IMG/VR virus record: IMGVR_UViG_3300026097_000011
Coordinates: 1-64,000 of that record
DNA length: 64,000 bases
Origin: a virus
Strand: one strand, 5' to 3'
In this document: piece by piece, positions 1-39,399 of the stretch
Layout: every line of letters starts with the position of its first letter
How positions within the stretch are numbered: position 1 is the stretch's first letter
The notes under the pieces: model-generated
Told to the model about the DNA's origin: nothing
Database searches by the model: none
What the model saw: the letters and a program-made list of their open reading frames with translations, nothing else
Position numbers and translations under genes: made by a program

Positions 1-13
1 TGTCCGTTATGTA

Positions 14-226
14 TCATTTAACCCAATTCTTATGCATTTCACTTTCTCTGTGTACTCTTATCATATTAGTTTTTCCACATCTACACTGTGTTATTAGAAA
101 ATTTGTATTGTTTTCCATAGGTATATTATACAATTTATTTTCAAATTCACACTTATGAAAACGATACATAACAGTGTATAACCAAAATAGTGGGTTAGGT
201 ATGTTAATTGCCCATTTTTTCTTCAT
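14..226 (-). CDS. Cassette 1 hypothetical protein (Cys-containing)
   Basis: 70-aa ORF; ATG lies in the loop of the attC-like site 166-298. Confidence 0.6.
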   Translation of the reverse strand: MKKKWAINIPNPLFWLYTVMYRFHKCEFENKLYNIPMENNTNFLITQCRCGKTNMIRVHRESEMHKNWVK

Positions 227-298
227 ATCAAGTTTGTTTTTATATTTAACATTTGTTTTTCAAAGTCCACTACTTCGGTTATATGTGAACCGTTAGCA
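166..298 (+). repeat. attC-like site 1
   Basis: ACATAAC..TATAACCAAAATAGTGG(177-193), 73-nt loop, CCACTACTTCGGTTATA(267-283)..GTTAGCA. Confidence 0.8.
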
Positions 299-493
299 AG
301 CATACAACTGACCGTTAAGCATAAAACAAGGGTTTTCTCCCTTATTATATCTAACGTCAGGTGTTTTGTCAAACATTACCATATATCCAACAATCACCTT
401 GCTATCTAAATCACTCTTGATAATCTTGGTTACTTCTCCTTCTCCAAGAAATCCAGAGTCCTTAACTCTTTCACCTATCTTAAATCTTTTCAT
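293..493 (-). CDS. Cassette 2 hypothetical protein (small SH3/KOW-like barrel, FKIGERV start)
   Basis: 66-aa ORF filling the cassette; stop codon coincides with the GTTA core. Confidence 0.7.
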   Translation of the reverse strand: MKRFKIGERVKDSGFLGEGEVTKIIKSDLDSKVIVGYMVMFDKTPDVRYNKGENPCFMLNGQLYAC

Positions 494-514
494 ATTTTAA
501 AATTAAAGTACGCT

Positions 515-576
515 TGCTAACAACGGCTATATGTCCATATTCGTACCTCATACGGCACATAGCCAAAACGTTATAA
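515..576 (+). repeat. attC-like site 2 (62 bp)
   Basis: TGCTAAC-aac-GGCTATATGtCCATAT..ATACGGCACATAGCC-aaaac-GTTATAA, with one extra base in the left arm. Confidence 0.85.
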
Positions 577-586
577 ACAATAAAAA

Positions 587-823
587 TTAATGTTTAGGGT
601 GTTTTTTTATCTTAGCCCAATAACAAACTTTATTGTTTGCAACCGTGTGACCTCTTCTATCGCTACAAGGTGCATTTAATAACCATCTACCTCTATAAGA
701 TATATAACCTGTGTACTCGTTAAAATAGTCACACTCACTTCCATCTTTTAATAAACTTCTTACCAAAACTAAAACATTTACACATTCTTCTGGTTTTTCT
801 TTGGTTACGTCTATCCATTTCAT
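587..823 (-). CDS. Cassette 3 DUF551-like phage protein
   Basis: MKWIDVTKEKPEECVNVLV...VCYWAKI pattern typical of DUF551; ATG at 823 preferred. Confidence 0.65.
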   Translation of the reverse strand: MKWIDVTKEKPEECVNVLVLVRSLLKDGSECDYFNEYTGYISYRGRWLLNAPCSDRRGHTVANNKVCYWAKIKKHPKH

Positions 824-835
824 AATTTTAAAAAT

Positions 836-966
836 ATATAACAACGTGTATAAACAAAAGCTATTTAAGTCTTTACCGTTGTTTTGTTAGTATTTATTTA
901 AGTTATTTTTAATCCAATATTTAATTCTTTTTTATACGCTTCAATTAATACACAATTCCGTTAGGC
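836..966 (+). repeat. attC-like site 3 (more degenerate arms)
   Basis: ATATAAC-aac-GTGTATAAACAAAAGC...GCTTCAATTAATACAC-aattcc-GTTAGGC. Confidence 0.7.
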
Positions 967-972
967 GTAATG

Positions 973-1419
973 CTACCCAAGTAGCCAATAAACAATAGCC
1001 TTTCTTCTTAAATTATCTTCTTCATCATATAAGTTTCCACCCATTACTGCTATCGAAAGTTTGTATTCTTTTTCTCGCACTTGTAAAATAGGATGTGACC
1101 AAACGCTATGTGAGTGAAGCATATTAGAAGTCCACTGTCCATTAGTGTTGTACTTAACATTAAAAATCCATTCAAATAATTTAGTCCAATACTTCATTAC
1201 CCCACAGTTACCCATTATGAACCCAAAAAATAGTGCGTATATAAACCACATCATAAAAAATGCTTCACTCGGTATTCCATCAATAAAAAGCATTGGTAAA
1301 AAGAATACAAACGAGTATCGCATATACAAGAAAGGCATTGTAATCAAACCACACATACGCCTAACAACAGCTATATGTAATGCCTCTTTTTTCTTTAATT
1401 TAGTTTCTGTATTATTCAT
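973..1419 (-). CDS. Cassette 4 membrane protein
   Basis: Two hydrophobic segments; N-terminal 21 aa (..EALHIAVVRR) are read through the attC arm. Confidence 0.65.
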   Translation of the reverse strand: MNNTETKLKKKEALHIAVVRRMCGLITMPFLYMRYSFVFFLPMLFIDGIPSEAFFMMWFIYALFFGFIMGNCGVMKYWTKLFEWIFNVKYNTNGQWTSNMLHSHSVWSHPILQVREKEYKLSIAVMGGNLYDEEDNLRRKAIVYWLLG

Positions 1420-1489
1420 TATTTTAGTCTTTTAAGTTAGTGTAGTAATTTATTCAAGGTCGGCACTACACATAGCCAAACTGTTATGA
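1359..1489 (+). repeat. attC-like site 4 (last of array)
   Basis: GCCTAAC-aaca-GCTATATGTAATGCC(1370-1384), 77-nt loop, GGCACTACACATAGC(1462-1476)-caaact-GTTATGA. Confidence 0.85.
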
Positions 1490-1515
1490 GTAATAAATTT
1501 TGATATATCTAATTT

Positions 1516-2421
1516 TTATAGGAAAAATTTACGATATTTAAATAGAGCTAGTTCCTTTGACTTTGCTTCAATTTCTATATCGAATATAGAACCAATATCA
1601 GGTATTTTACAGTATATATAATCAGAATGAGATCGCTCAATTACAGAATCATCCTCAAATAATTTACGACTATTACTAACGTGAGCAAGTGGACGAATAC
1701 CAGTTGGCCAAGTGGATGCAGCAAGCTCAGCTGCGTCGTCAGTAGATAAATCACCATCACAAAATAAATGGTGAAAGAAATCAAATGTGATAGGAATATC
1801 GATATGCTTGTATAAGCCATTGTATAAATCAACAACACTATATTGACTAGCTTTATCGTCGTTTTCTATAACTAATCTACGCTGAGTAGTATCAGCAAGT
1901 AATTTAAAATTGGTAACAAAACGTGCAAGTGTCGAATCTTTATCGCCATAGCTGCCGCCAACGTGTATATTGAGACTATACTTATGTGTGGCAGGTAGTC
2001 CCATAAGATCAAGTATGCGACTATGCTTATCAAGATCGTCAATAGAATTAAGGACTACTTTTTCAGTTGGCGAAGGCAATACACAATATTGACCTGGGTG
2101 AAAGCCTACACGCAAATCATTAGCTAATACATAGTCGCCAATTTGAGTGAGCAGGGATTGTATACTATCGAAATTTGGTAAATCCTCAAATCGATACTCA
2201 GACATCCAAGGAAATAAACTGCTTGAAAACCTAAAGACTCGGATGTCATGTTCGACATTCCATTCAAGAACTTTTAGTAAGTCTTGAAGATTAAGCTCGG
2301 CTAATTCGCCTGCATATTCAAGGCCTCGAGCTTTGAACGTTTTTTTGATCATGCCACGATTGGTAGTAATACCGAGTGGCTTAAGTGTTAGATTAATACA
2401 GCAATATCCTAAATTATTCAT
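1516..2421 (-). CDS. uvsE: UV DNA damage endonuclease
   Basis: LGYCCIN, FRFSSSLFP, FHPGQY, NIHVGG, IENDDK, FDFFHH, HSDY, EAKSKE motifs. Confidence 0.95.
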   Translation of the reverse strand: MNNLGYCCINLTLKPLGITTNRGMIKKTFKARGLEYAGELAELNLQDLLKVLEWNVEHDIRVFRFSSSLFPWMSEYRFEDLPNFDSIQSLLTQIGDYVLANDLRVGFHPGQYCVLPSPTEKVVLNSIDDLDKHSRILDLMGLPATHKYSLNIHVGGSYGDKDSTLARFVTNFKLLADTTQRRLVIENDDKASQYSVVDLYNGLYKHIDIPITFDFFHHLFCDGDLSTDDAAELAASTWPTGIRPLAHVSNSRKLFEDDSVIERSHSDYIYCKIPDIGSIFDIEIEAKSKELALFKYRKFFL

Positions 2422-2449
2422 ATTGTTATATTACTAAAAATATATAGAA

Positions 2450-2611
2450 TTATTCACTTTTGTTTCTTCTATTATATTTTTTTGTAGATCCATATGGACA
2501 GTGTTTACATTTATTATTACAACAAAATCCTCTTTTTAAATGGTATTTCTCAGTAAATACTTTGTACCCATCCTTATTGATATAATAATCTTCTCCTTTT
2601 ATTAATCCCAC
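2450..2611 (-). CDS. Small Cys-rich DUF5522-like protein (not in ORF track)
   Basis: Manual translation from GTG: MGLIKGEDYYINKDGYKVFTEKYHLKRGFCCNNKCKHCPYG..., 53 aa. Confidence 0.8.
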   Translation of the reverse strand: MGLIKGEDYYINKDGYKVFTEKYHLKRGFCCNNKCKHCPYGSTKKYNRRNKSE

Positions 2612-3174
2612 CAGTGTCTAATATTATGTTCAATGAATGCCCATAATAAACGATGGGCTTTTTCTTGTTTAAGTCTAGATTCTTTCATCAACTTTCTTTG
2701 TATTTCATCGATTTCAGCTATTCGTTCAGGAGTTTCAGTAAGTTCATAGTTTTGTTTAAGAAATGAGCTATCATCTCCTTTTCCAGTATCAATGAATTTA
2801 TGTTCTAACAGTTCAGCTCCATATAGTTCTACCATCTTAGCTTGATATTCACAGGAATAATCTTCGTCATATACCTTCTTCATCAATGCAATTGCAGTTC
2901 TTACTCTTGTAGCACTATGTTTTGATTCTACACACATAGCATTATCTGATTCCATTCGCTCTGCGATATCTTCTAATTTAGCTGAGAATATTTCAGTTGC
3001 ATATCTATAATCAAAATCATATCCTTTCCAAATCATTGGAACATACTTTCGCAATTGTTTAAATTGATGATTCTTTCTACGAAAAAAGTATTTAAAATTC
3101 CTCCATACTTTCGCAATTCCCTTAACTCTGATTTTATCGAGTATATTGGGATCCTTTATTCCTTTACTTATCAT
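2602..3174 (-). CDS. Hypothetical phage protein
   Basis: 190-aa ORF, coupled to neighbours. Confidence 0.75.
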   Translation of the reverse strand: MISKGIKDPNILDKIRVKGIAKVWRNFKYFFRRKNHQFKQLRKYVPMIWKGYDFDYRYATEIFSAKLEDIAERMESDNAMCVESKHSATRVRTAIALMKKVYDEDYSCEYQAKMVELYGAELLEHKFIDTGKGDDSSFLKQNYELTETPERIAEIDEIQRKLMKESRLKQEKAHRLLWAFIEHNIRHWWD

Positions 3175-3569
3175 TAGTCAAGTGTTGGCCAAACGAACTC
3201 ATAATGTCCATCTTTCATTTGATTTACTTTAATAGTTCGAATGATCTTTCCATTCTCTTTTCCATATTCAATCTCAGCTTGAACTCCAACTGATTGCTTA
3301 ACTAAGTTATCTGACATTTCAACTACCCATATTTCTTCACTCCAATCAATGAACGAGTAATCGATCTTTTTCCAAACTTCCCATGTACCAAGTAATTCCT
3401 TTTCGTACTTGCCATCATGTATAGATGCTTGTACAATTGGATGCGACATTGAAATTGGAGAAAGTGGAATGTGACCCATCTTAATAATTTCATAAGCTGC
3501 ATGATTTGCCATCTCAAAACTTTTTTCCTCTACACGAGTGTAAGGAATTGCTACATATATTCTTTTCAT
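3174..3569 (-). CDS. Nucleoside 2-deoxyribosyltransferase-fold protein (DUF1937/DUF4406-like)
   Basis: IYVAIPYT, SPISMSH, SVGVQAEIEY motifs. Confidence 0.75.
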   Translation of the reverse strand: MKRIYVAIPYTRVEEKSFEMANHAAYEIIKMGHIPLSPISMSHPIVQASIHDGKYEKELLGTWEVWKKIDYSFIDWSEEIWVVEMSDNLVKQSVGVQAEIEYGKENGKIIRTIKVNQMKDGHYEFVWPTLD

Positions 3570-3793
3570 AACTTTGCACTTATTTGTTCGAATGCCAGTA
3601 CTGGATTCTCGGTTGCGAATCCATCGATACCACCATCCGGTTCTGTAAATAATTTACCAACATCATATTTAGCCCAAATAAATTGGCCAAATCTTAAGTC
3701 ATTTTCATTTCTTCCTTTACCATATTTAATATGCCATTTGACTAACTCATCCATTAGAAGATCACTAGTCAATTCTAAATTACTTGCTTCCAT
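3566..3793 (-). CDS. Hypothetical protein
   Basis: ORF from ATG 3793 (MEASNL..), LRFGQ motif common in phage proteins. Confidence 0.65.
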   Translation of the reverse strand: MEASNLELTSDLLMDELVKWHIKYGKGRNENDLRFGQFIWAKYDVGKLFTEPDGGIDGFATENPVLAFEQISAKL

Positions 3794-4040
3794 GTTTTTG
3801 GTGTAATGCGTTAGTAAATGTTTCTTCTCCTCCTGTACTTGAATTTTTAAATACAATATGAGTAGTCCCAGGAGTTTCTCTAAATACCTTCTTAGCAAAT
3901 GCTTTAGGATAGTGAATGTTCACATATGATTTAATTGATTTTCCAGGGCAATATACTTCCGCTGTTATTGGCGAGTCTTTCTCTGCTAATTTATTCTTTC
4001 TGAATTCTGTTCCTACAAAGAACTTATCTTGTTTAGACAT
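3780..4040 (-). CDS. Hypothetical protein
   Basis: 86-aa ORF abutting epimerase. Confidence 0.65.
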   Translation of the reverse strand: MSKQDKFFVGTEFRKNKLAEKDSPITAEVYCPGKSIKSYVNIHYPKAFAKKVFRETPGTTHIVFKNSSTGGEETFTNALHQKHGSK

Positions 4041-4913
4041 TTATTTTATTTTATGTTTAATATATCTAGTTAATGAATGTTGAGGGTTCCAATCTAATTT
4101 TTCATTAGTATCTGTTTCTATCTCAACTGCGTTAATACGTTCTCCTCTTCTTTCAGGAATAAGTCGATATTTATGATCAAATAATTCAGCAACTTCCTTA
4201 ATTGTGTAAGTACGTCCTGATCTTAAGTGCCATTCTCCGTTTAATCCTTTTTCAACCGAGGCAATTACTCCTCTTACTATATCATCAATATGTGTAAAGT
4301 CCCTAGACTGAGTCCCTGGTGAAACTACTGTTAATTCTTCTCCATTATCATATTGTCTCTCGAATATTCCAACTACTGTTGCATAATCTCCTGATGTAAT
4401 TTGACCTGGACCGTACACATTAAAGAAATAGCAAATTTCATATTCTAAATTATACCACTCTTTGTAGTTTTTTATAAGTTCTACTCCTTTTGCTTTCATC
4501 CAAGCATATGGAGATAGATTCTCATCCTTACCATCGTTTCCGAATTTTGAACTTGATGCTGAATATATTAACTTAGCTCCCCATCGTCTGCACATTTCAA
4601 GAACTCTAGTCGTACCGTGTAAATTTGTTTTAAGTACATAATCGATGTCTTCAAAAGAAGATACTATTCTAGAGTATTCACCGAAATGAAATACTATATC
4701 GAACGTACCTTTATCCTTTTGGAAATACTTTTCAATATCCCAAGTGTCTGCATGGATTACGTCTATTCCCTTTGGAATATTATTGAAAGTTCCAGTGAAA
4801 AAATTATCTAGAATGGTAATCTTCGAATGAGGATATTTTTCAAGAATTTGTTTAATTAGATTTGATCCTACAAATCCGGCTCCACCTGTTACTAATATTT
4901 TCTTATTGTTCAT
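4041..4913 (-). CDS. NAD-dependent sugar-nucleotide epimerase/dehydratase
   Basis: VTGGAGFVGSN, YAWMK (YxxxK), FNVYGP, RDFTHIDD. Confidence 0.92.
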   Translation of the reverse strand: MNNKKILVTGGAGFVGSNLIKQILEKYPHSKITILDNFFTGTFNNIPKGIDVIHADTWDIEKYFQKDKGTFDIVFHFGEYSRIVSSFEDIDYVLKTNLHGTTRVLEMCRRWGAKLIYSASSSKFGNDGKDENLSPYAWMKAKGVELIKNYKEWYNLEYEICYFFNVYGPGQITSGDYATVVGIFERQYDNGEELTVVSPGTQSRDFTHIDDIVRGVIASVEKGLNGEWHLRSGRTYTIKEVAELFDHKYRLIPERRGERINAVEIETDTNEKLDWNPQHSLTRYIKHKIK

Positions 4914-5205
4914 CTTCACCAGCACTTTCAGGTTCCCCAATTGTTATCCACATTCCTTCTGTAAAATCTGATGTATCTTCAACAACATCATCAAGAGCAA
5001 TTACTTGAATTTGTCCACCGGTGTTAGCAACCATTATAAGACTATCTTTAGGACCAAAATATCCTTCTATTTCTCCTTTGGCTTTAACTAGTATTCCTTC
5101 TCCGATTGGTATGATTGATTGTAATGCTTGGGCAAAAATTAACGTCCCAGCACTAAGTTCCTCTTGTGAATATTCTCGAGGTTCTTCGTTTGATAAATCT
5201 GTCAT
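4903..5205 (-). CDS. Hypothetical acidic protein
   Basis: 100-aa ORF behind putative promoter at 5225-5251. Confidence 0.7.
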   Translation of the reverse strand: MTDLSNEEPREYSQEELSAGTLIFAQALQSIIPIGEGILVKAKGEIEGYFGPKDSLIMVANTGGQIQVIALDDVVEDTSDFTEGMWITIGEPESAGEDEQ

Positions 5206-5224
5206 TATAATTGAATTTAATAGT

Positions 5225-5251
5225 ATTATACAGATTTATTTTTACTGGTTT
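5225..5251 (-). promoter_or_regulatory. Putative early/middle promoter AAAC-N17-TATAAT
   Basis: Same motif and spacing at 27184-27210 and 61782-61808. Confidence 0.5.
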
Positions 5252-6801
5252 AGGTAAAAGTCTAATTTTTTTTGCATTTTATCTAGTTTTGAACCAGATT
5301 GTTTACCGAGAAGTTGTTTTTTAGCCTTTTCATAATTAAGATCTAATAATGCTCTTTCTAATCGCTTTTTAGATTCTTCAGGGTTTGATATATTATGTGT
5401 TAATGACATAAGACCTCCTCTTATTCCGATTTCATATATTCTATCTATTTTACGCTTACTGTTAATTCCTTTATTATGTCTAAATTGTGATCTATCTTCT
5501 GGAACTAATTTATATAACGAGTCAATTAGAGTATTGGATTCAGCAATTTGATCTTGAGTAAGTTCTTCTTTTTCATTATCTTCTATTTCTTCTAGTTCCT
5601 TTTGCCTTTTAATAATATCTTCCACTTGATCTTCTATTTTATTAGGATCAAGAGTATCGAGCTTAGACCATTTCTTTTTGTCTTCGTCTGACATTCCATT
5701 TTTTCTAAGCTGTACTACTGACTTCATGTAATTATAATATAACTCACGCAACCTAGCAGTTAGACTAGAATCTCTCTTAAATGATACTTTAGTTGAGGCT
5801 TTTCCACTAGATATTTCCTCAATATCACTTACAAGTTCATCAGGTTCTTTATCTTCTATCATTTCATTATAAATATCTACTTCTAATTGAAGATCGGGAG
5901 TAATTTTAACCTGATCTCCATCTACATAGAAGGAATCGTCCTCTAATAAAATAGTAGATACATCATCTACTTCGATGTCACCTGCTGGAGGAGTCCAATA
6001 ATCTCCAGGGTCGTATGTTTCGTTAATAGTGGCATTTGTTGAATATACGATGTTGAATAGTGCTCCATCTTTATCATTTGATAATCCTAGCAGTTTACGA
6101 TCCTCGTCACTTATTACTCCTAATCCAAGATCAGTTGGAAATAATCCAATTCCATCCAAATAATCTATGTATGCATCAGGTATTTTATCTTGATTGGATG
6201 TCAACGTCATAGCTATATCTGTAATATAATCATCTATTATACCCTCATTATGTTCTACATTAGTTAAATTATCTCCGCCTTCATGAACATCAACATCAAC
6301 TAGTTTTAAAACAGTAGGCCTACCGGTGATCAATTTTAATACTTCTCCTAATAGATATGATTTTGCAGATTCATCACTAGACGTTGAGTCTTTTGATTCT
6401 AATATTAGCTCATGATTAAACAAACGTGTTCCTATTTCTCTAAGTGCACTACCTATATCTAGATGTTTCAGAGTAATCCAATGAAATGGAGTCTTATTAT
6501 GATTAAGAACTACACTCGGCCTACCAGGAGTTTTCATATTAAATACTCCTTTTAAACCATCTTCTCCTTTATAATCAATTTTTCTACCTGCAAATTTATT
6601 TCCACCTTTGTGAATAACTCGATATATAGTATCACCTATAAATACCATCTTTATTCCGGGTTTTATCTCTGCATATCCATTAATAGTAGTTACATAAAGG
6701 AACCGACCTTCTTTAGTTGGGCGTCCCTTGATCAATATAACGGATCCCCTCCCTATTGATTCATTGAGTTTTTCGGAATAAGGTAAAATGTACTTGTTCA
6801 T
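5242..6801 (-). CDS. Hypothetical late protein
   Basis: 519 aa; ATAAATA upstream; N-terminal ILPYSEKLNE motif. Confidence 0.75.
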   Translation of the reverse strand: MNKYILPYSEKLNESIGRGSVILIKGRPTKEGRFLYVTTINGYAEIKPGIKMVFIGDTIYRVIHKGGNKFAGRKIDYKGEDGLKGVFNMKTPGRPSVVLNHNKTPFHWITLKHLDIGSALREIGTRLFNHELILESKDSTSSDESAKSYLLGEVLKLITGRPTVLKLVDVDVHEGGDNLTNVEHNEGIIDDYITDIAMTLTSNQDKIPDAYIDYLDGIGLFPTDLGLGVISDEDRKLLGLSNDKDGALFNIVYSTNATINETYDPGDYWTPPAGDIEVDDVSTILLEDDSFYVDGDQVKITPDLQLEVDIYNEMIEDKEPDELVSDIEEISSGKASTKVSFKRDSSLTARLRELYYNYMKSVVQLRKNGMSDEDKKKWSKLDTLDPNKIEDQVEDIIKRQKELEEIEDNEKEELTQDQIAESNTLIDSLYKLVPEDRSQFRHNKGINSKRKIDRIYEIGIRGGLMSLTHNISNPEESKKRLERALLDLNYEKAKKQLLGKQSGSKLDKMQKKLDFYLNQ

Positions 6802-20806: not shown

Positions 20807-21937
20807 TTACACAAATAATAAATCAAATGGAGATTCAGAAAAATTAGACAGTATGATCTCATTAAATTCGTCATATGTTTTTCTATCTCCCATCTTATCA
20901 TAGAAATTATATAAATTATTAATATCCTTGATACCGTTTACATCATTGCGATTATTTGGATATTGATCTCTTAATTGTTTAATTAATTTAGACCATAGGA
21001 ATACTGAATATCCGTCTTGTAATAACTTGAATGTTTCCTTCTTACCAGCAGAATCATTGTCGAAGAGTATACGACCATTCTTCTTTGACACTAATGTACC
21101 AAGTATATTCTTACCTTTGGTTACACCAGTGGTGGCTATTGAATTCTTAAGGAACATGGCATCAATCTGACCTTCTAATACGATAATAGGTTCGTTAAAA
21201 TTGATGTTAAGAATATTGAAGTAACTATTAACGATGTCAATTTTGGTTATAATTGCTTCATCAATTGCGTCAATTAATTTATTTTTTACAAACTGAGAGT
21301 AATTTTTAATATCGTATTTAGGTCCTGAATAATCATCATTGATTCTACGTATTGATAACCCTAGCACTCTGCCTGATCTTAAATCTAAATTGAATATGTA
21401 GATTTTATCCTGTCTACTATCGTAATAACACGATTTGTCAAATGCAGGAAGCTCTCGTATATTTCTACCTGTAACGTATTCTCCAATAGGAGAATCAAGC
21501 GGAGCATCTGAACATTTCTTTAAAAAGAATCGGACTGCTAATTCCTTAAAGTCAATTAGAACACTCTTAACTTTAGGATCCATTAAGAACATTATCAACT
21601 CGCCACGTTTAGTTCCATGCTGGATCTTACGATCAGGCTCTACATTAATCATGCTAGGAATTGGAAGCTGATGCTTCATTGCCCAATGAGAAACGAATTT
21701 TGGAAGCTTTGTAAATATTAAGCATCCATCATTGAAGCATTTGTATGTACCAGTTTTAAGGAATATATTACCCCTCTTTTTAGATACATCACTTTCTGAA
21801 TCTCCACAATATGGACATGCAAAATTAAGCTTGTCATCATCTTCATTTACTTGCTGCTTGAATCTATTTCCAGGAAATGATTGCTTTAATACATCGCTAA
21901 CAAACTCAGATATATTGTACGTTGTTTCAGTCTTCAT
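20807..21937 (-). CDS. DNA primase (T4 gp61-like)
   Basis: CPYCGDS..KKRG..CFNDGC zinc finger; TOPRIM VLEGQID, FDND. Confidence 0.9.
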   Translation of the reverse strand: MKTETTYNISEFVSDVLKQSFPGNRFKQQVNEDDDKLNFACPYCGDSESDVSKKRGNIFLKTGTYKCFNDGCLIFTKLPKFVSHWAMKHQLPIPSMINVEPDRKIQHGTKRGELIMFLMDPKVKSVLIDFKELAVRFFLKKCSDAPLDSPIGEYVTGRNIRELPAFDKSCYYDSRQDKIYIFNLDLRSGRVLGLSIRRINDDYSGPKYDIKNYSQFVKNKLIDAIDEAIITKIDIVNSYFNILNINFNEPIIVLEGQIDAMFLKNSIATTGVTKGKNILGTLVSKKNGRILFDNDSAGKKETFKLLQDGYSVFLWSKLIKQLRDQYPNNRNDVNGIKDINNLYNFYDKMGDRKTYDEFNEIILSNFSESPFDLLFV

Positions 21938-21938
21938 A

Positions 21939-23501
21939 TTATATGCTTTGTGCAGCTTTCTCCGCCTTCTCTCTTGCCTTTCTGTCTTTCTCTTCCTGTC
22001 TAGCCTTTGCCTTATCTTTCTTTTCTTCTGCCTTTCTCTCCTTCTCTTTCTCTTTTTCAGCATTAATTCTTGCGGTTTCTGCTAGTCCCTCTGGAGAGAA
22101 CGCTCCAATTCCAAGCTTCTTTGATATTCTATTAATAAACGGCTTTAGATTCTTATTGATGATGATCACCGTATTTAAACCATATTTAGTTATGATTTCT
22201 AGATATTCATCAAAGTCTTCCTCTGGGACATCTGCGTCCGGATCTTCTATTACACTCCAAAATTTCTCTGGAACTTCTTCGTGCTCTAGGGTAGCCTCAC
22301 ATATTACATGAAGTGGGTACTTCTGTTCATATGTCATCGGCTTTTTAGTTTTTGAGGTTTTAAATACTATAGATCTTTTTAAATTCTGATCAATTGTATT
22401 TATCCCAATTGCCTTTAGTATTCTATTAATCGGTTCAATTATCAAAACAAAAAACTGTTGATCATAATCTAATTCAGGAATAATTTCCGTTGGATATTGA
22501 CCTGGATTATATGCAAATAAATCTATTCCAAACTCATTTGGTTTACAATATAACATTTGATACTTACTTCCTTGTCTAATTCTAGGATATCTACCCTCTA
22601 ATTCGTTTTTAAGTATCAAGTGATTATGGTGCATAACTGCCTTTGGACCGTTTGCTGCTCCTTTTTTAAGAGTACATTTTTCTTCGCTCTGTACATATTT
22701 ATCATATTGACGAAGATTGAAACTTTGAGAATATTCATCAGGACGTAGAGTTAAAAATTCCTCTTTTACTTTTTCTATTTTTGGAATAAGATCCTTTTCT
22801 AAATCAAAATCAGTACCTGCCTTTAGTAAATATTCGATGAATTCTGTTTGATGCTCTCTTGCCCATATAGGATAAGACGCTTTTATAGGTTCAAGTCCTT
22901 TAATTAAAAGGTATCTCTCATCCATTGGATATAGTTCCTCTTTTGGATTTGGCTCATACGCTACTTTAAGTACATAATTCTTTTTCTTAATCCAAACTGC
23001 GTTTGTTGCAATAAGCTCCAGTTTAAATGTTTGGCGATTAACAGTGTTGAATCTCTCTGACCATTTTTCAAAAGCAGTGTCATAAAATTCTTTGATTCTG
23101 TGTTTATCTATTTCAATACATAATCTCATGAATTCGTCTTCTGTTAATTCTAACCCCTCTATTGATTTCAATGCTGGTTCAAAATTAACATACGTAGAAT
23201 CTGTATCTGTGTATACTGCGATTATTTCGTCTGGATCTATTTTGTTAATTTTACGATCAGCGTATCCTAGTTTTTCATGAAGCTCAGTATCATCATGCCA
23301 TCTATTTTTAAAATAGAAATCAATTGCTTTATTTGCGAACTTAATCATATCTTGCCCCTGGAGTGTAATAGATTGAGCGATATCTGGGTTGTAAAAATAA
23401 AACCATTTATTTCCAAATGCCCCGTAGATAGAATTAATAAGAATTTTAATCGCTCCTTGTCTCAGGCTCAATTGTTTGATTTTTTTCGCTTTATCTTCCA
23501 T
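21939..23501 (-). CDS. Family B DNA polymerase, C-terminal subunit (split gp43)
   Basis: KILINSIYG (motif B) at residue ~19, YTDTDS (motif C), KKNY; no exonuclease or motif A. Confidence 0.9.
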   Translation of the reverse strand: MEDKAKKIKQLSLRQGAIKILINSIYGAFGNKWFYFYNPDIAQSITLQGQDMIKFANKAIDFYFKNRWHDDTELHEKLGYADRKINKIDPDEIIAVYTDTDSTYVNFEPALKSIEGLELTEDEFMRLCIEIDKHRIKEFYDTAFEKWSERFNTVNRQTFKLELIATNAVWIKKKNYVLKVAYEPNPKEELYPMDERYLLIKGLEPIKASYPIWAREHQTEFIEYLLKAGTDFDLEKDLIPKIEKVKEEFLTLRPDEYSQSFNLRQYDKYVQSEEKCTLKKGAANGPKAVMHHNHLILKNELEGRYPRIRQGSKYQMLYCKPNEFGIDLFAYNPGQYPTEIIPELDYDQQFFVLIIEPINRILKAIGINTIDQNLKRSIVFKTSKTKKPMTYEQKYPLHVICEATLEHEEVPEKFWSVIEDPDADVPEEDFDEYLEIITKYGLNTVIIINKNLKPFINRISKKLGIGAFSPEGLAETARINAEKEKEKERKAEEKKDKAKARQEEKDRKAREKAEKAAQSI

Positions 23502-29899: not shown

Positions 29900-31714
29900 A
29901 TGGCAGGGATTAATAACTTAAGAAAGGTACGAGATAAAAGGGGAGATGATTTTTTAAATAATCTACTTAATAATTTTGTTGTAATTAACGAAAATATAGA
30001 TGGTACGTTCTTTGGAGTTAAGAAAGATAAAGAGTCAGGAAAATTTAGATATTTTAAGAAATCAGGTGAAATCACATATGTTGATAGAATGCTGATGAAA
30101 TTCTACAATCCAGCAATTGCTTATTTCGAAACATTATCAGATGATAAGAAATCAAGAATTCCATCTAATTTTTATTTTGGATTTGAATTTATAACATCAA
30201 GAGATAAAAAATCTTCTAATTTTAATAGAAAGCCTAAAAATAATTTAGTACTTTCATATATTCACAGATTAGGAGAAGACAATAAGCCAGAAGAAACATT
30301 ACAAACAAAAGATGACTTAGACAGATGGGCATATTATTTAGAAGTAGAAGCTCCTCCTATTATATTTGAAGGTAAATTAGATGATGATCAAAAGCGAGAA
30401 ATTTTAGAATTTGTTTATGCTAATGATTCAGATCTTCAAGAAAAATTCAAAACTACATCGTTTACTAAATACATTATTTCTATATTAAACTCTGACGAAA
30501 GAGATTCTTTAACTAGAAAGGGATTCAATGGAGATATTGAAAGTATAATATTTAGATTCTATGACGAAAACGACGAGGATGCAAAAGAAGATGCATTTCT
30601 AGCAAAAATAGTAGATCCACTATTTAGTATTAAATCTACTAAATCAGATAAGACAGAAAATAAATCGAATGATTATATTTGGTTGATTGTAATAGATCTG
30701 ATGAATAGGATAGAGATGTATTCAGAAGACGAATTAAGATCTATGTGTGAAGATGAAGAAGACTATGACGCTAAATACCTAAGCTTAGTTAATTCAATAT
30801 ATAAAGATTTTATCAAAGAATACTCTAAAAAATACGATGGACTTCAATTAGACATTCCAGAGTATTTAAATAGACCAGAATTTGAGGTTGAATTTGATTT
30901 AATTAACGATGATGAAGTAGTTAGACTAATTAAGAACAATGAGACGTTTAAAGAAATATACAGAATATTAGTAAACTTCTTTAGAAAACCTAGAAAGAAA
31001 TCATCTTCTAATTTCTTTACTCCAGAATTGTTAAATCAGCTCAATATTCAGATTACCAAAATCAAGAGAGTAATAATGGGTGATGTTCTATATGAAGGAC
31101 TATTTCCGTCATTTGGAGAATTCATGGGAGATTCACTTTTTGTAGGTGAACGTGAAGATTTTGAAACTAAAAGTAAATCCAAAGTTAAAACAGAAAAAGT
31201 AAATGTACTAATTGGTAATTTTCAACCAGTACACAATGGACACCTAAAAGCAGCAGAAAAACTCAAGGAGAAGAATGGATTACCTTGTGTTTTTATTTCA
31301 GTTATAAAAAAGAACAGAAGATATCCATTTTCAGAAAGATCGGTTCGTATAATGCTTAAAAAGGTACAACAGAATAATATTGAATTAATTAGAGATATTC
31401 AAATAGTGGGATCTGGGTCTATTAGAAAAATACTAGCAGAATTAAGACCTGAATATAGTCCAATCTTATGGGGATCGACTTCTAATAAAATAAAGGACTA
31501 TGTATTACAATTAGACCATGTTAAGAAAAAAGATATTCCACTTAGACTAGATGATGAATTTAAATTAATTGAAGTTCCAAGCTATCAGAAATCATCAGAT
31601 GTAATAGATGCTATTGAAAGCGGGGAATTTAATTCATTTAAAACAATGGTTCCTAATTCAATAGGATCAGAATTTTTTAACTTACAAAAGGAGCTAGAAT
31701 TTTACGAAAGGTAG
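29900..31714 (+). CDS. RNA-ligase-like domain fused to HxGH nucleotidyltransferase
   Basis: ENIDG, FGFEF, PPIIFEG, ESIIFR, AKIVD ligase-like motifs; GNFQPVHNGH. Confidence 0.65.
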   Translation: MAGINNLRKVRDKRGDDFLNNLLNNFVVINENIDGTFFGVKKDKESGKFRYFKKSGEITYVDRMLMKFYNPAIAYFETLSDDKKSRIPSNFYFGFEFITSRDKKSSNFNRKPKNNLVLSYIHRLGEDNKPEETLQTKDDLDRWAYYLEVEAPPIIFEGKLDDDQKREILEFVYANDSDLQEKFKTTSFTKYIISILNSDERDSLTRKGFNGDIESIIFRFYDENDEDAKEDAFLAKIVDPLFSIKSTKSDKTENKSNDYIWLIVIDLMNRIEMYSEDELRSMCEDEEDYDAKYLSLVNSIYKDFIKEYSKKYDGLQLDIPEYLNRPEFEVEFDLINDDEVVRLIKNNETFKEIYRILVNFFRKPRKKSSSNFFTPELLNQLNIQITKIKRVIMGDVLYEGLFPSFGEFMGDSLFVGEREDFETKSKSKVKTEKVNVLIGNFQPVHNGHLKAAEKLKEKNGLPCVFISVIKKNRRYPFSERSVRIMLKKVQQNNIELIRDIQIVGSGSIRKILAELRPEYSPILWGSTSNKIKDYVLQLDHVKKKDIPLRLDDEFKLIEVPSYQKSSDVIDAIESGEFNSFKTMVPNSIGSEFFNLQKELEFYER

Positions 31715-31804
31715 GATTGCTAGTGGAAGGCGTACTTAAATCCTTTCATTTTATGAAACTATTGTGTTAGTTTCTAATATAATAAAAAGAAATAATTATA
31801 TTGC

Positions 31805-33493
31805 ATGAGATTCAAAGAATTAACTCAAGAAAACAAGGATTTTATTAAACGGACTTATTTAGACACTAGTATTAGTTGGGAAGATAGAATGACAATATTA
31901 TCAGAATACACTGGTAAATCTTCAAGAACAGTTCAAAAATGGGTTGCTAAGCTAAATATAAAATTAGGAACAGCTAATACTCCAGCTGAATCGCCAGAAT
32001 TTAAAAAGGCTAAAAATAGAAAATTCAATCAAAGCAAAAAGAGGTTCATTATCACATGGGCACAAAACAACACCCCCGTTCATCCAATATTTTTAAAGAA
32101 TATCGAAGCATATGCAAAGTATATCAAAGCAGATATTCACGTTATAGCAGGAAGATACAAAAATCCAACTTCAGTATTTACGGACAGAGAATATGACAGA
32201 TGGCACGAACCAGTTTTGAAGTACTTAGATGCAGCAAGACATGATGTACATAAATATCTTTCTATTATGTCAGATGTTAAAGTGCAACCAACCGCAGTTA
32301 ATCCTATGACTGGAATGCAAGGAATGTCAGGAATTAATTCATGTATATTTGGATCTCCTAAACTTCAACTGGAAATGATTCCAGTTTTAGAAGGATGTAA
32401 ACCAAAAATGATGATGACTACTGGAGCGTGTACTAAAGCAAATTACACAGATTCTAAATCAGGTAAGAAAGGAGAATTTCACCATACGTTAGGATTTGTA
32501 GTTGTTGAGATTAAAGACGATGATACATTTTTTACAAGACAAGTAAGCGCAGATGAAGATGGAAACTTTATAGACTTATACTATGATATATGGTTTGACG
32601 GAGAAGAACAAGATATTGATTTTTCAAATGAACCGTTTCCAGCAATAGCAAAAATAGAGTGGATAAAATCCAATTTTGGAGAAGATCCTACTGAATGGGT
32701 TGGAGAAACTGACATTGCAAGAATAGATAAAGTTGATGCTTGTGTATTAGGAGATTTACACTTTGGCAACGAGGATAAAGAAGTAATAGAGGGATCCAAG
32801 AAACTTATGAGTGAATTGAGACCAAGTCACGTCATACTACATGATGTATTTGACGGATCTTCTATTAATCATCATGAATCAAAAGATCCATTTGCTCAAT
32901 ATAGAAAAGAAGTAAGAGGAACTAACGACTTGAAAAAAGAAGTTGATTATATGCTAGATCAATTAGCAATGTTTGAAGAATATGATAATGTTGTGGTTGT
33001 TAGAAGTAACCATGATGACTTTTTAGATAGATGGCTGAAGAATGAAGATTGGAAAAAGATGCCAACTGCTAAGAATTCTATGGAGTATATGAAATATAGT
33101 CAAATACTCCTTAAGCAATATGCAAAAGCACCTCAAGTAAAGGGGGTTATTCCTGAATTAATCAATGATGTTTATCCTGAGTTCATTACATTAGGAAGAA
33201 GTGATAGTTATATAGTCAATGGATGGGAACTAGCATGTCACGGAGATGTAGGATCAGGTGGATCAAGAGGGTCACTACAACAATTCAGAAAACTAAATAC
33301 GAAAATTATAACTGGTCACTCTCATACACCGGGTAGAAAGGACGGAGCATTAGCAGTTGGAACTTCTACTATTATGCGAATGGGTTACAATATAGGGCCA
33401 AGTAATTGGTTACAATCTCATGTTATTATCCATAAAAACGGAAAAGCTCAACATGTACACTTTATAGATGGAGAATATACAACATTTAAATAA
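31805..33493 (+). CDS. Metallophosphoesterase-domain protein (T5 A1-like), N-terminal HTH
   Basis: GDLH, HDVFDG, SNHD, HGD, GHSH motifs; RFIITWAQNNT. Confidence 0.7.
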   Translation: MRFKELTQENKDFIKRTYLDTSISWEDRMTILSEYTGKSSRTVQKWVAKLNIKLGTANTPAESPEFKKAKNRKFNQSKKRFIITWAQNNTPVHPIFLKNIEAYAKYIKADIHVIAGRYKNPTSVFTDREYDRWHEPVLKYLDAARHDVHKYLSIMSDVKVQPTAVNPMTGMQGMSGINSCIFGSPKLQLEMIPVLEGCKPKMMMTTGACTKANYTDSKSGKKGEFHHTLGFVVVEIKDDDTFFTRQVSADEDGNFIDLYYDIWFDGEEQDIDFSNEPFPAIAKIEWIKSNFGEDPTEWVGETDIARIDKVDACVLGDLHFGNEDKEVIEGSKKLMSELRPSHVILHDVFDGSSINHHESKDPFAQYRKEVRGTNDLKKEVDYMLDQLAMFEEYDNVVVVRSNHDDFLDRWLKNEDWKKMPTAKNSMEYMKYSQILLKQYAKAPQVKGVIPELINDVYPEFITLGRSDSYIVNGWELACHGDVGSGGSRGSLQQFRKLNTKIITGHSHTPGRKDGALAVGTSTIMRMGYNIGPSNWLQSHVIIHKNGKAQHVHFIDGEYTTFK

Positions 33494-37908: not shown

Positions 37909-39399
37909 ATGGCAAAGAAAGATTTAATAAAGGTAATAACGGATCCAAAGGTTCCACTTAAAGAGCTATGGTCAACAGACACAGGTAGTGTATCTGTTGA
38001 GAACCCATTTATTATACCAGGTAAAGGAACTAGAACAGCTGCTATGAGCGTTGGATCAGATGTACCATTTGTTAAGATTAATTCTATTCCCATTACTGAA
38101 ATTGATTTATTAATAATAGATGAAACTGGAATAGTACCTAAAATTAAGATTATATTTATGGATGGATCAGGTGCATTGACTGGAGCCAATTATCCTAAGA
38201 ATGATCCGATTTTAAGCCTCTATATTAAGTCTCAAAATAGTAAATTTAAACCAATTAGATGTGACTTTTTAATTACTAATATTAAAACTAATCAGGACCC
38301 AGTATTAAATGCCGAAAATATTGACATAGGCGCAAACTTTATTATGACAGGCGAATTATACATACCTAAAATATATAAAAACGTATCCAAGAGCTATAGA
38401 AATATGAACTCAAAAGATACGCTTAAGAAGATTGCATCAGAAACTGATTTAGGATTTGCATGTAACGAGTTTATAACAAATGACAAGATGACGTGGTTAA
38501 ACACTAATAGTAGCAGTTTAAATTTTATAGATCATGTATCAAAACATTCTTATTTAGATGATGATACATTCTTTACGTCATTCATAGATAAATTTTATCA
38601 CTTGAATTTTATTAATGTTGCTGAACAATTGAATCTGGCAAATGAACATAATATGACATATGATAATACTGTGGATTCATCAGAGTTAGACATATCAGAA
38701 AAAGTGGCAAGTGAAATAGATAATGATAAATTATCTGAAATGCTAAGTGTTGCAGGTTTAACAAATAAAGATGAATACAGAGGGAAGCCTGAGTACATTA
38801 TAAATTATTATTTAATGGGAAATACTGGAAGTATATTAAAGAACAAAGGATATAAAAAGAAAGTATACTACTATGATCCTTCACTAGAAGACGAAAATAG
38901 ATTTACTAGTTTTTTTGTAAATCCTATTGAAATCAAAGGATATACTGGAGAAAACAAAGGATTAGAACCTGATGATGAATCTTTAAGAGAATCAATTATT
39001 AAAAAATGGATGAATATTGATTATGGAAATGCTCATCCTGAATGGAATGCATCGGCACTTATCAATGATCATAACAACAGCGAGCTTAACAAAGTAAAAC
39101 TTAAAGTTGAGACTGCTGGTATTAATTTTCAAGTTAATAGAGGTGCTTCAATTCCTGTGATGATGTATTTTCCACCAACTACATATTTAGAAAAAGACAT
39201 ACAAAGAGCAGATGGAAGCGCTAAGACACAAACTCCTATTAATATACAGGACTCGGTACCAGACGGGATTATATCTGGAAAATACTATGTAAGTGGCGTT
39301 AGATATATCTATGATAGATTAAATGACTCATTTCCATTTAAAACTGAATTTCAATTAGCTAGGGTTAATTGGTTAGGTGAAAATAATATAGTTCAATAA
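37909..39399 (+). CDS. Putative baseplate hub protein
   Basis: Position in operon; ISGKYYVSGVRY C-terminal hub-like motif. Confidence 0.6.
   Translation: MAKKDLIKVITDPKVPLKELWSTDTGSVSVENPFIIPGKGTRTAAMSVGSDVPFVKINSIPITEIDLLIIDETGIVPKIKIIFMDGSGALTGANYPKNDPILSLYIKSQNSKFKPIRCDFLITNIKTNQDPVLNAENIDIGANFIMTGELYIPKIYKNVSKSYRNMNSKDTLKKIASETDLGFACNEFITNDKMTWLNTNSSSLNFIDHVSKHSYLDDDTFFTSFIDKFYHLNFINVAEQLNLANEHNMTYDNTVDSSELDISEKVASEIDNDKLSEMLSVAGLTNKDEYRGKPEYIINYYLMGNTGSILKNKGYKKKVYYYDPSLEDENRFTSFFVNPIEIKGYTGENKGLEPDDESLRESIIKKWMNIDYGNAHPEWNASALINDHNNSELNKVKLKVETAGINFQVNRGASIPVMMYFPPTTYLEKDIQRADGSAKTQTPINIQDSVPDGIISGKYYVSGVRYIYDRLNDSFPFKTEFQLARVNWLGENNIVQ

Follow-up and report, generated by a model that had tools for sequence, protein, structure and literature searches.

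At the start of the viral record IMGVR_UViG_3300026097_000011 of IMG/VR, below the gene of the UvdE endonuclease (1516-2421), which is the last recognisable gene before the array, four small open reading frames (ORFs) alternate with inverted repeats bounded by TAAC...GTTA. This locus raises the question of which strand of the repeats folds, and of how the genes between them are oriented with respect to it. Here we analysed positions 1 to 64,000 of the record, a stretch of 64,000 nt called the window below, which is the first 64 kb of a linear record of 138,587 bp estimated to be 54% complete. We consider it likely that window positions 1-1545 are the recombinase-proximal part of an integron-like cassette array of a large tailed phage, and that the cassette genes lie on the folding strand. 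An earlier note on this DNA had taken the minus strand as the folded, bottom-like strand and the plus strand as the top strand, and this assignment is supported by the folds, the model scores, the junctions at AAC, the geometry of the recombinase platform, the cassettes shared between arrays and a calibration on bacterial arrays. These sequence comparisons support an integron-like array of a phage, cut short at its end and with its cassette genes reversed, on which the recombinase would act in single-stranded form. The four cassette ORFs are all on the minus strand, as the note had stated, and so is every other ORF listed between 14 and 5205.

According to the accessible part of Nivina et al. 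2016 (PMC5027507), recombination at classical attC sites takes place in the 5'-AAC-3' of the bottom strand, with extrahelical bases near L'', and the bottom strand has more G:T mispairs and the better fold. The same text holds orientation to be essential in classical integrons, where promoterless genes face away from the integrase to be read from the Pc promoter, and where strand selection ensures this arrangement (PMC5027507).

We compared both strands of the four window sites. Site 1 (166-297, minus) is a hairpin of the long type: its stem of 17 bp has two wobbles, both G-T on minus, and its loop, of about 72 nt, includes an ATG. Site 2 (513-578, minus; inverted repeat 517-575) is of the short type and reads AAC, a 5-nt spacer, a 15-bp stem, a 3-nt spacer and GTTA. 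Site 4 (1357-1491, minus; inverted repeat 1361-1489) is again long-type; its 16-bp stem has three wobbles (G-T on minus) and is free of bulges, and its loop measures 79 nt. Site 3 (834-968, minus) is a degenerate long-type site that has kept its AAC and GTT boxes and mostly lost its stem; because a GTTAGGCG box is found at 960, this weak site starting at 838 was extended to about 967.

Folded as single-stranded DNA, the minus strand is favoured by about 3 kcal/mol at each of sites 1 (-12.2 versus -9.3 kcal/mol for plus), 2 (-9.4 versus -6.2 kcal/mol) and 4 (-8.8 versus -5.7 kcal/mol). The gap is wider as RNA, where minus and plus reach -30.8 and -22.3 kcal/mol at site 1 (z -3.55 and -0.61), -25.3 and -10.9 kcal/mol at site 2 (z -3.34 and -0.84) and -28.4 and -24.9 kcal/mol at site 4 (z -3.73 and -1.90). 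In the minimum-energy folds, the long stems of these three sites contain seven G-T (in RNA, G-U) wobbles on minus and zero other mismatches: 276/184 and 273/187 in site 1, 558/531 and 553/537 in site 2, and 1477/1369, 1471/1375 and 1466/1380 in site 4. Further wobbles lie beside the AAC/GTT boxes. The note had described the arm mismatches of sites 1, 2 and 4 as six, all of them G-T wobbles on the minus strand; the direction was right and the count was short by one for the stems. Its reading of the spacers also stands, since on the plus strand sites 2 and 4 have 3 nt after TAAC and 5 nt before GTT; classical sites have the longer spacer on the AAC side, and the family described below has, on its folding strand, 5 nt after AAC and 3 nt before GTT. 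The extra base that the note placed in the plus left arm of site 2 is T534, which on minus is a bulged A in the 3' arm, opposite AAC. As the exchange at AAC, the G:T mispairs and the better fold match the properties given by Nivina et al. 2016, and the one bulged base, in site 2 only, lies on the corresponding arm, we regard the minus strand as the bottom-like strand.

Using two patterns taken from sites 2 and 4, we searched IMG/VR and found the same element in dozens of unrelated contigs, in forms of about 60 nt (short), about 98 nt and about 135 nt. A first covariance model was built from 19 short sites and a second, R2, from 54 hits. The structure of the first model was set by hand, RNAalifold on a MAFFT alignment of the short sites having given 3 pairs only, with the loop columns out of register. 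Across the 54 family sites, 96.6% of the stem cells are paired and seven of the nine stem pairs show changes on both sides. None of 500 shuffles reached the observed covariation, and shifted registers fall to 22-50% pairing. Pure chance is ruled out by this covariation and by the recurrence of the sites in other contigs. The A-U, A-U and C-G pairs of the boxes are kept in 54/54, 54/54 and 51/54 cells, the box consensus being AUAAC...GUUAU, with TAAC...GTTA in all of window sites 1-4. At two positions of the stem, G-U predominates on the gene strand (29 GU versus 22 GC, and 43 GU versus 7 GC); read on the opposite strand, these pairs are A-C mismatches, and the family consensus is without a fixed bulge. 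Site lengths run from about 56 to about 135 nt and above, with classes near 58, 98 and 135 nt.

Scored against R2, site 2 reaches 67.9 bits on minus versus 12.1 on plus, and site 4 reaches 45.1 bits, on minus only. The strong matches of the covariance model are thus confined to the minus strand, and nothing in its results places the attC top strand there, which the note had named as a test of its polarity. Site 4 is also 81-87% identical to the long-type sites of L023, L040, L043, L044 and L050. In one class of short sites, a constant leader of about 35 nt (GTTATATGCTTTTTATTAAC...) is followed by many different genes, and the sequence before AAC varies by contig; this class was seen in L022, L025-L029, L031, L039 and L045, and its leader may be a shared promoter or a translation-initiation module carried with the site.

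A recombinase of the type that accompanies these arrays was first found adjoining a long-type site at the start of a 210-kb record, and its relatives were collected from 80 IMG/VR loci (L050-L129). R2 found 254 sites in 60 of the 80 loci, and all 254 share the strand of the recombinase gene; 249 of them lie upstream of it and 5 downstream. An AAC|TAT... motif with variable sequence ahead of it precedes the recombinase start codon in 59 of the 73 loci that were left once exact duplicates had been removed. The single strand shared by sites and recombinase, together with this motif, therefore makes the coding strand of the recombinase the folding strand, and puts an attI-like site between the gene and the array. 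Judged from sequence, recombinase, attI and attC are arranged as in a classical integron, the ORFs alone being flipped.

The link between such a platform and the window is provided by L058, the end of another IMG/VR contig, of 127.5 kb. Its positions 1-126 match the reverse complement of window 6-131 at 100% identity; directly behind CATAAC the two sequences part. From there the window has GGACA and then ends; L058 has TATATTATATATG..., two copies of AATAAGTTATAA and then the ATG of the recombinase. A short contig (224 nt, depth 9.6) of the metagenome run X1, possibly from the source sample itself, covers window 6-206 without a difference, and the 23 letters that precede its match to the window are the exact reverse complement of the L058 continuation. 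A form in which ORF A lies beside the attI-like site therefore coexists with the form assembled in the window. Run X2 contains parts of the window only at 90-95% likeness.

The L058 gene (L058:179-979) encodes a 267-aa tyrosine recombinase with a SAM-like N-terminal domain and a catalytic domain of the Xer/IntI type, as found in a search run on its L043 relative, which is 72% identical to it. The best solved relatives are Pyrococcus XerA (4a8e, E 1.7e-32) and VchIntIA (2a3v, E 1.2e-27). It scores 160.4 bits against TIGR02249, for which the cut-off is 265, and 174.8 bits against the XerA family NF040815, for which it is 220. Aligned to VchIntIA, residues 18-173 correspond to 17-175 and residues 210-263 to 260-313; the 84-residue interval of VchIntIA between these two blocks presumably contains the IntI-specific domain. 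By these alignments the recombinase is not a member of the IntI family as defined, though the system is like an integron in every feature tested.

With the folding strand placed in this way, gene orientation could be compared between arrays. In 14 phage arrays, the longest ORF is on the folding strand in 91 of 93 inter-site intervals; the arrays had been chosen for their many matches (13 of the 60 recombinase loci with matches, plus L029), and intervals of 90-1500 nt were counted. For calibration on bacteria, a pattern scan with one genome per species gave 13 loci, ten of which carry names that we take to be Bacteroidota; R2 detected arrays in these loci, and intervals of 90-3000 nt were counted. 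The large bacterial contigs L135, L136, L137, L139, L140 and L144 have ORFs of 216-478 aa opposite the folding strand in 11 intervals, L139 and L144 being one 2.84-Mb Flavobacteriaceae contig. Small contigs with several sites (L134, L138, L141 and L145) have small ORFs on the folding strand. Some of the bacterial contigs are bins and may be misassigned. The comparison supports one site family in which gene orientation appears classical in bacterial arrays and reversed in phage-like arrays.

The same orientation is found in an isolate. Polaribacter phage P12002L (L132, NC_028924) has 6 R2 sites, at 30003-32286 and 38030-39250, all on the gene strand; they lie between methyltransferase genes and small genes, and no tyrosine recombinase is annotated in the record. 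The nearest recombinases of isolates are those of Polaribacter phage Freya_10 (36.6% identity) and Cellulophaga phage Ingeline_1 (41.5%), and neither phage has convincing sites of the family, with best scores of 13.8 and 14.1 bits. In the records of Polaribacter phages Freya_1 to Freya_10 (MT732463-MT732472; 43,978-48,920 bp), the integrase gene lies at 104 to 4201, and the Freya variants may differ by the DNA upstream of it.

Next we examined whether the genes and their hairpins form units of exchange. In the window, the 10 nt after each GTTA and the 10 nt before the next TAAC are complementary at 9/10, 9/10, 5/10 and 6/10 positions for cognate flanks, versus 1-6/10 for non-cognate ones. On either side of ORF B lies one copy of a 14-nt inverted repeat (292-305 and 508-521), with 93% complementarity between the two, and the flank GTTAGGCGTA of site 3, at 960-969, is complementary to 1356-1365. 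The same flank complementarity recurs in six adjacent pairs of L029, which has 11 co-oriented sites whose stems differ by compensatory changes. Complementary flanks of this kind look like those of integron cassettes that would circularise; because the relation is symmetric, it is silent by itself on polarity.

Polarity can be read from the ends of the DNA that arrays share. We compared 84 homology blocks between arrays, with at least 85% identity and divergent flanks, leaving out duplicates, blocks at most 40 nt from the end of a locus and blocks in which the outer 20 nt were more than 60% identical. Eight of the 84 run from AAC box to AAC box, so that they contain the hairpin in front of the gene and end before the hairpin behind it, and none runs from GTT box to GTT box. 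Examples are L069/L106 (100% over 315 nt), L055/L103 (99.4% over 495 nt) and L073/L086 (99.9% over 960 nt), the last of which stops, in one partner, at the attI-like site. On the left, 38/84 blocks end at AAC and 9/84 at GTT; on the right, the figures are 17/84 and 1/84, against random baselines of 12.4% (AAC) and 2.6% (GTT). Because the sequence before AAC is variable, L058 diverges after AAC and the X1 contig has its junction there, the placement of the exchange in the 5' AAC triplet of the hairpin on the gene strand is supported at the level of sequence.

In run X1, joints at 587-1361, 1386-1460 and 1392-1461 have sides of 21-26 letters; they most likely come from other sites of the family, and we draw no conclusion from them. 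Segments of about 175 nt, running from a GTT box to inside a coding sequence, are common to cassettes with different hairpins and downstream sequence (L063/L068/L074/L106 and L071/L087/L117/L079), which suggests a common small upstream ORF or an N-terminal module.

According to the explanation that we propose, one unit, read on minus, would begin with the C of an AAC box; after a spacer of 5 nt would come the imperfect hairpin, whose length varies, then a spacer of 3 nt and GTTA, and finally a single small gene and ...AA. The minus strand would fold, and exchange would fall in its 5' AAC, the triplet used on the bottom strand of classical attC sites. The array would run to an attI-like site (AAC|TATATTATATA..., then the two AATAAGTTATAA copies) and to the 267-aa Xer-like recombinase, just beyond window position 1 and on the same strand, and this enzyme would carry out a single-stranded recombination, for which the evidence is indirect, namely the coexisting junction variants and the IntI1 activity that Qi et al. 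2023 report for one P12002L site. The hairpin would then travel ahead of its gene and form part of the mRNA leader, and the long-type hairpin would bring the start codon with it. Cassette genes would be read from upstream phage promoters or from their own promoters, never from the recombinase side, and a new cassette inserted at the attI-like site would land at the promoter-distal end of the array.

The likeness to integrons is extensive. The window sites and their family share with them inverted boxes whose AAC/GTT triplets are invariant, an imperfect hairpin that has an asymmetric unpaired spacer and a terminal part of variable length, one strand that folds better and carries the G:T mispairs (at sites 1, 2 and 4; not at site 3), exchange in the 5' AAC of the folding strand, complementary cassette flanks, and, outside the window in L058, an attI-like site with direct repeats beside a tyrosine recombinase coded on the folding strand. 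Sedentary chromosomal integrons, with their homogeneous attC sites, are the closest match. The differences from integrons are that the phage recombinase, at 267 aa, is without the IntI-specific insert, that the family has fixed G-T wobbles in place of regular extrahelical bases, and that the boxes are mostly (A/T)TAAC and not RYYYAAC; of the window boxes on plus, ACATAAC, TGCTAAC, ATATAAC and GCCTAAC, only the last fits the RYYYAAC / GTTRRRY consensus. Furthermore, the cassette genes are on the folding strand, with the hairpin in front and the recombinase ahead of them, and a Pc promoter beside the recombinase cannot read them. The note had relied on canonical attC rules; as canonical attC sites, those of the window are unproven, and the associated enzyme lacks the IntI-specific insert.

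Classical cassettes in reverse orientation with promoters of their own, such as the toxin-antitoxin cassettes of chromosomal integrons, and integrons of Spirochaetes and others with an inverted integrase show that orientation is not absolutely fixed. Those cases are exceptions within arrays or a flip of the integrase, whereas the phage arrays keep the classical integrase/attI/attC geometry and reverse nearly every gene.

Early-promoter stem-loop elements (PeSLs), reportedly a feature of T4-type phages and the subject of Arbiol et al. 2010 (PMC2839356), offer another comparison. In the available text of Comeau et al. 2014 (PMC4122927), a PeSL is an early sigma-70-type promoter with a terminator-like stem-loop, repeated between ORFs. 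Like the window sites, these are repeated stem-loops between small accessory ORFs in variable regions of large phages, by which these ORFs are proposed to be gained, lost and swapped (PMC4122927, same portion). Unlike the window family, PeSLs are thought there to act by homologous recombination (or by a site-specific one of unknown kind); the window family has cores of AAC/GTT, breaks that fall precisely at AAC, flanks that are complementary and a recombinase of its own, and no promoter signal was found at the window sites.

The nearest description that we found is that of Qi et al. 2023 (PMC9892861), who report, in the part accessible to us, attC clusters without an integrase (CALINs) in phages and IntI1 activity on sites of three virulent phages. 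Polaribacter phage P12002L is among the virulent phages with attC-type sites between their genes; one P12002L site was recombined by IntI1, and the top strand gave no recombinants (PMC9892861). The same portion of the paper describes the P12002L sites as lying in 'divergent directions' and mentions neither a systematic reversal of genes nor an Xer-like recombinase with its own attI-like site. The open literature that we searched, which does not cover subscription journals, held no description of reversed cassettes or of an Xer-like phage platform, Qi et al. 2023 being the nearest.

Several observations weigh against an integron-like array on the minus strand. Site 3 is without strand preference (RNA -16.0 versus -15.7, z near 0) and scores 9.4 bits in R2 (E 0.9), neither of its strands folding better than shuffles as RNA; at sites 1, 2 and 4, the folding of both strands as DNA and RNA, proposed in the note as a check, favoured minus. 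Site 1 was undetected by R2 in the window scan. The model itself was built gene-sense from sites found through window-derived patterns, so that its verdicts on strand are only partly independent. The sites lack regular extrahelical bases: site 2 has a bulge, and sites 1 and 4 have none. Only 5 nt of the truncated site at the contig start, site 0, are left in the window to show the divergence from L058. No PF00589 match or recombinase gene was found in the window or its 138-kb record, and the recombinase is tied to the window only by the 126-nt identical overlap with L058 and by one short metagenome contig. It falls below the cut-off of every NCBIfam family and has 36 residues where VchIntIA has 84, which makes it 48 shorter, without the IntI-specific insert.

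This last point would suit a conventional Xer-type reaction on double-stranded DNA at the inverted AAC/GTT cores, in which no strand folds, top and bottom are without mechanistic meaning and gene orientation is merely a property of the system. The enzyme is as like XerA, XerC and XerD as it is like IntI, and removal of the insert from integron integrases is said to restore a double-strand activity. An ancestral activity of these integrases is the subject of Escudero et al. 2016 (PMC4792948). We nevertheless think such a reaction very improbable: the cores lie anywhere from about 56 to about 135 nt apart while covariation preserves the stem, which fits a folded substrate and not a fixed core, and G-T wobbles at fixed positions are strand-specific. 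Polarity could also be the reverse, with plus recombined, the crossover in the GTT box of minus and ordinary cassettes of gene then site. Three basal stem positions of site 1 would indeed be G-T wobbles on plus and not on minus; GTT is enriched at the left block ends, where 9/84 blocks begin at it against a baseline of 2.6%, and many block ends lie at neither box; and run X1 contains sequences resembling site 2 with junctions to other DNA at both boxes. The folds, the model scores, the junction after AAC and the position of recombinase and attI-like site all point to minus, AAC-to-AAC blocks number eight and GTT-to-GTT blocks zero, and blocks starting at GTT represent conserved 5' portions of genes and stop within genes. 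We therefore consider a reversed polarity, already disfavoured, scarcely credible.

The remaining possibility is that the hairpins are RNA elements only, namely leaders, processing sites or stabilisers of a polycistronic mRNA, similar to PeSLs and shuffled by homologous recombination. The wobbles are G-U pairs in the transcript, and on a coding strand they fit a function at the RNA level equally well; the structures lie on that strand and fold strongly as RNA (z -3.3 to -3.7), one class of sites has a constant leader of about 35 nt before many different genes, and start codons lie inside the long-type sites. PeSLs, moreover, are repeated stem-loop modules that shuffle small ORFs in hyperplastic regions, according to the accessible part of Comeau et al. 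2014 (PMC4122927). Homologous recombination does not, however, predict AAC/GTT triplets as invariant as those of the 54 family sites, nor cassette-specific flanks that are complementary across each gene, breaks exactly after AAC, or a tyrosine recombinase with an AAC|TAT site in constant position and strand beside the arrays. The bacterial arrays have their genes on the other strand, so the hairpin strand there is not the mRNA, and the promoter-like signal is not above that of shuffles. A role in RNA alone is accordingly unlikely in our judgement, and the integron-like array with its genes on the folding strand is the reading we retain.

If this is so, the cassette genes need a source of transcription. 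They face the recombinase, and a promoter on that side therefore cannot read them. The genes upstream of the array have the same orientation, with short gaps between them, and the simplest reading of this geometry is that the cassettes would be expressed by read-through from the UvdE side and not from a Pc promoter, as the note had proposed. In ORFs B and C the start codon follows the GTTA box at a distance of only 15-25 nt, which leaves little room there for a cassette promoter; promoters inside the loops of long-type sites are possible. A scan for promoter-like sites gave 23, versus 27.6 in shuffles, none of them placed consistently at the hairpin sites, and the T4 late-promoter word TATAAATA has 10 matches in the window, versus 15.9 expected, and none in 1-5400. 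A scan for terminators picked none of the hairpin sites and gave two matches on minus, at 1774-1751 and 346-325; no T run was seen after the stem of site 2. At 344-372 (minus), inside ORF B and pointing at site 1 and ORF A, there is a perfect sigma-70 consensus, TTGACA-17 nt-TATAAT (12/12).

The hairpins of sites 1, 2 and 4 are predicted by the RNA folds to be stable in the transcript, in agreement with the suggestion of the note that they would form in the mRNA too. Long-type sites (1357-1491 and 166-297 in the window; L023, L041, L043 and others) have an ATG in the loop, and their 3' arm is translated as ..ALHIA(D/V)V.. at the head of otherwise unrelated proteins; ORF D reads through the 3' arm of site 4 as ..ALHIAVV... 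With its ATG in the loop and its 3' arm translated, the recombination site therefore supplies the start and the first residues of the gene.

If the system is active, recombination of folded-strand cassettes may not need the IntI-specific domain, phages would own a dedicated route by which small accessory genes are gained singly, and a recombination site would have been co-opted into the transcript. Classical as the platform looks in its geometry and strand selection, the genes are reversed in essentially every case. We lean slightly towards a general picture in which large Bacteroidota phages have an integron lineage of their own, with a short Xer-like recombinase without the IntI insert, hairpin-first cassettes, a site that serves as 5' leader and sometimes gives the start codon and first residues, and entry at the promoter-distal end, immediately upstream of the recombinase gene; bacterial chromosomes would use the same family of sites with genes in the opposite orientation, and the capture strand would separate phage cassettes from those of their hosts, the recombination chemistry being common to both. 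The host of the phage in the window is probably a member of the Bacteroidota.

The window has a G+C content of about 32% and encodes a portal, a head protease, a DNA polymerase, a helicase and a topoisomerase II, and we therefore assign it to a large tailed phage. Its hairpin sites are confined to the contig start. Site 0 (1-12, minus) is cut by this start: minus reads ...CATAAC and then the spacer GGACA, with a GTTATG half-site at 6-12. What is left is the 5' AAC box of one more hairpin site or cassette, and sites of the AAC-GGACA-stem type are present in L069 and L106. Many related contigs (L050-L129) stop either in an array or at most a few hundred bases from the recombinase gene, like the record of the window; arrays of this kind seem to break metagenome assemblies, and the window itself starts inside one.

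Cassette ORF A (14-172, minus) has 52 aa if it starts at the ATG inside GTTATG at 172-170, and 70 aa if it starts at the ATG at 226 in the loop of site 1. Its residues 15-53 are identical in L058, and its only match is a weak one in PHROG (phrog_15191, E 0.003). ORF B (293-493, minus) has 66 aa and a stop codon inside the GCTAAC box of site 1. ORF C (587-844, minus) has 85 aa if the TTG at 844 is its start codon, or 77 aa if it starts at the ATG at 820, and ORF D (973-1419, minus) has 148 aa from the ATG in the loop of site 4 or 126 aa from an alternative start at 1353. Pfam and PHROG searches assigned no family to ORFs B, C and D. An IMG/VR search for relatives of ORFs D and B, by which the cassettes of the window might be traced into other arrays, found none, and no close relative of D; the comparison of genes with the hairpins that travel with them was therefore made on other cassettes.

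The distal edge of the array is marked by an AT-rich remnant of a site class of about 89 nt (1490-1545, minus), which overlaps the UvdE stop codon and is without an AAC box. Over 48-49 nt it is 84-92% identical to site interiors in L081, L115, L052 and L063, which belong to a hairpin class common in related arrays. The UvdE (UV damage endonuclease) gene, on minus, matches PF03851 (E 7.6e-55) and is the first non-cassette gene upstream of the array.

Over the whole window, Rfam at gathering thresholds gave no match and there are no tRNA genes, and plain word counts of the arm motifs are not above chance. Sites 2 and 4 have no match among GenBank phages by blastn at E 0.01. Further into the window, at 20807-23501 (minus), the ORFs 20807-22063 and 21939-23501 overlap, and the second matches DNA polymerase families over its first 370 or so residues only; the polymerase gene may be split or interrupted at this place.

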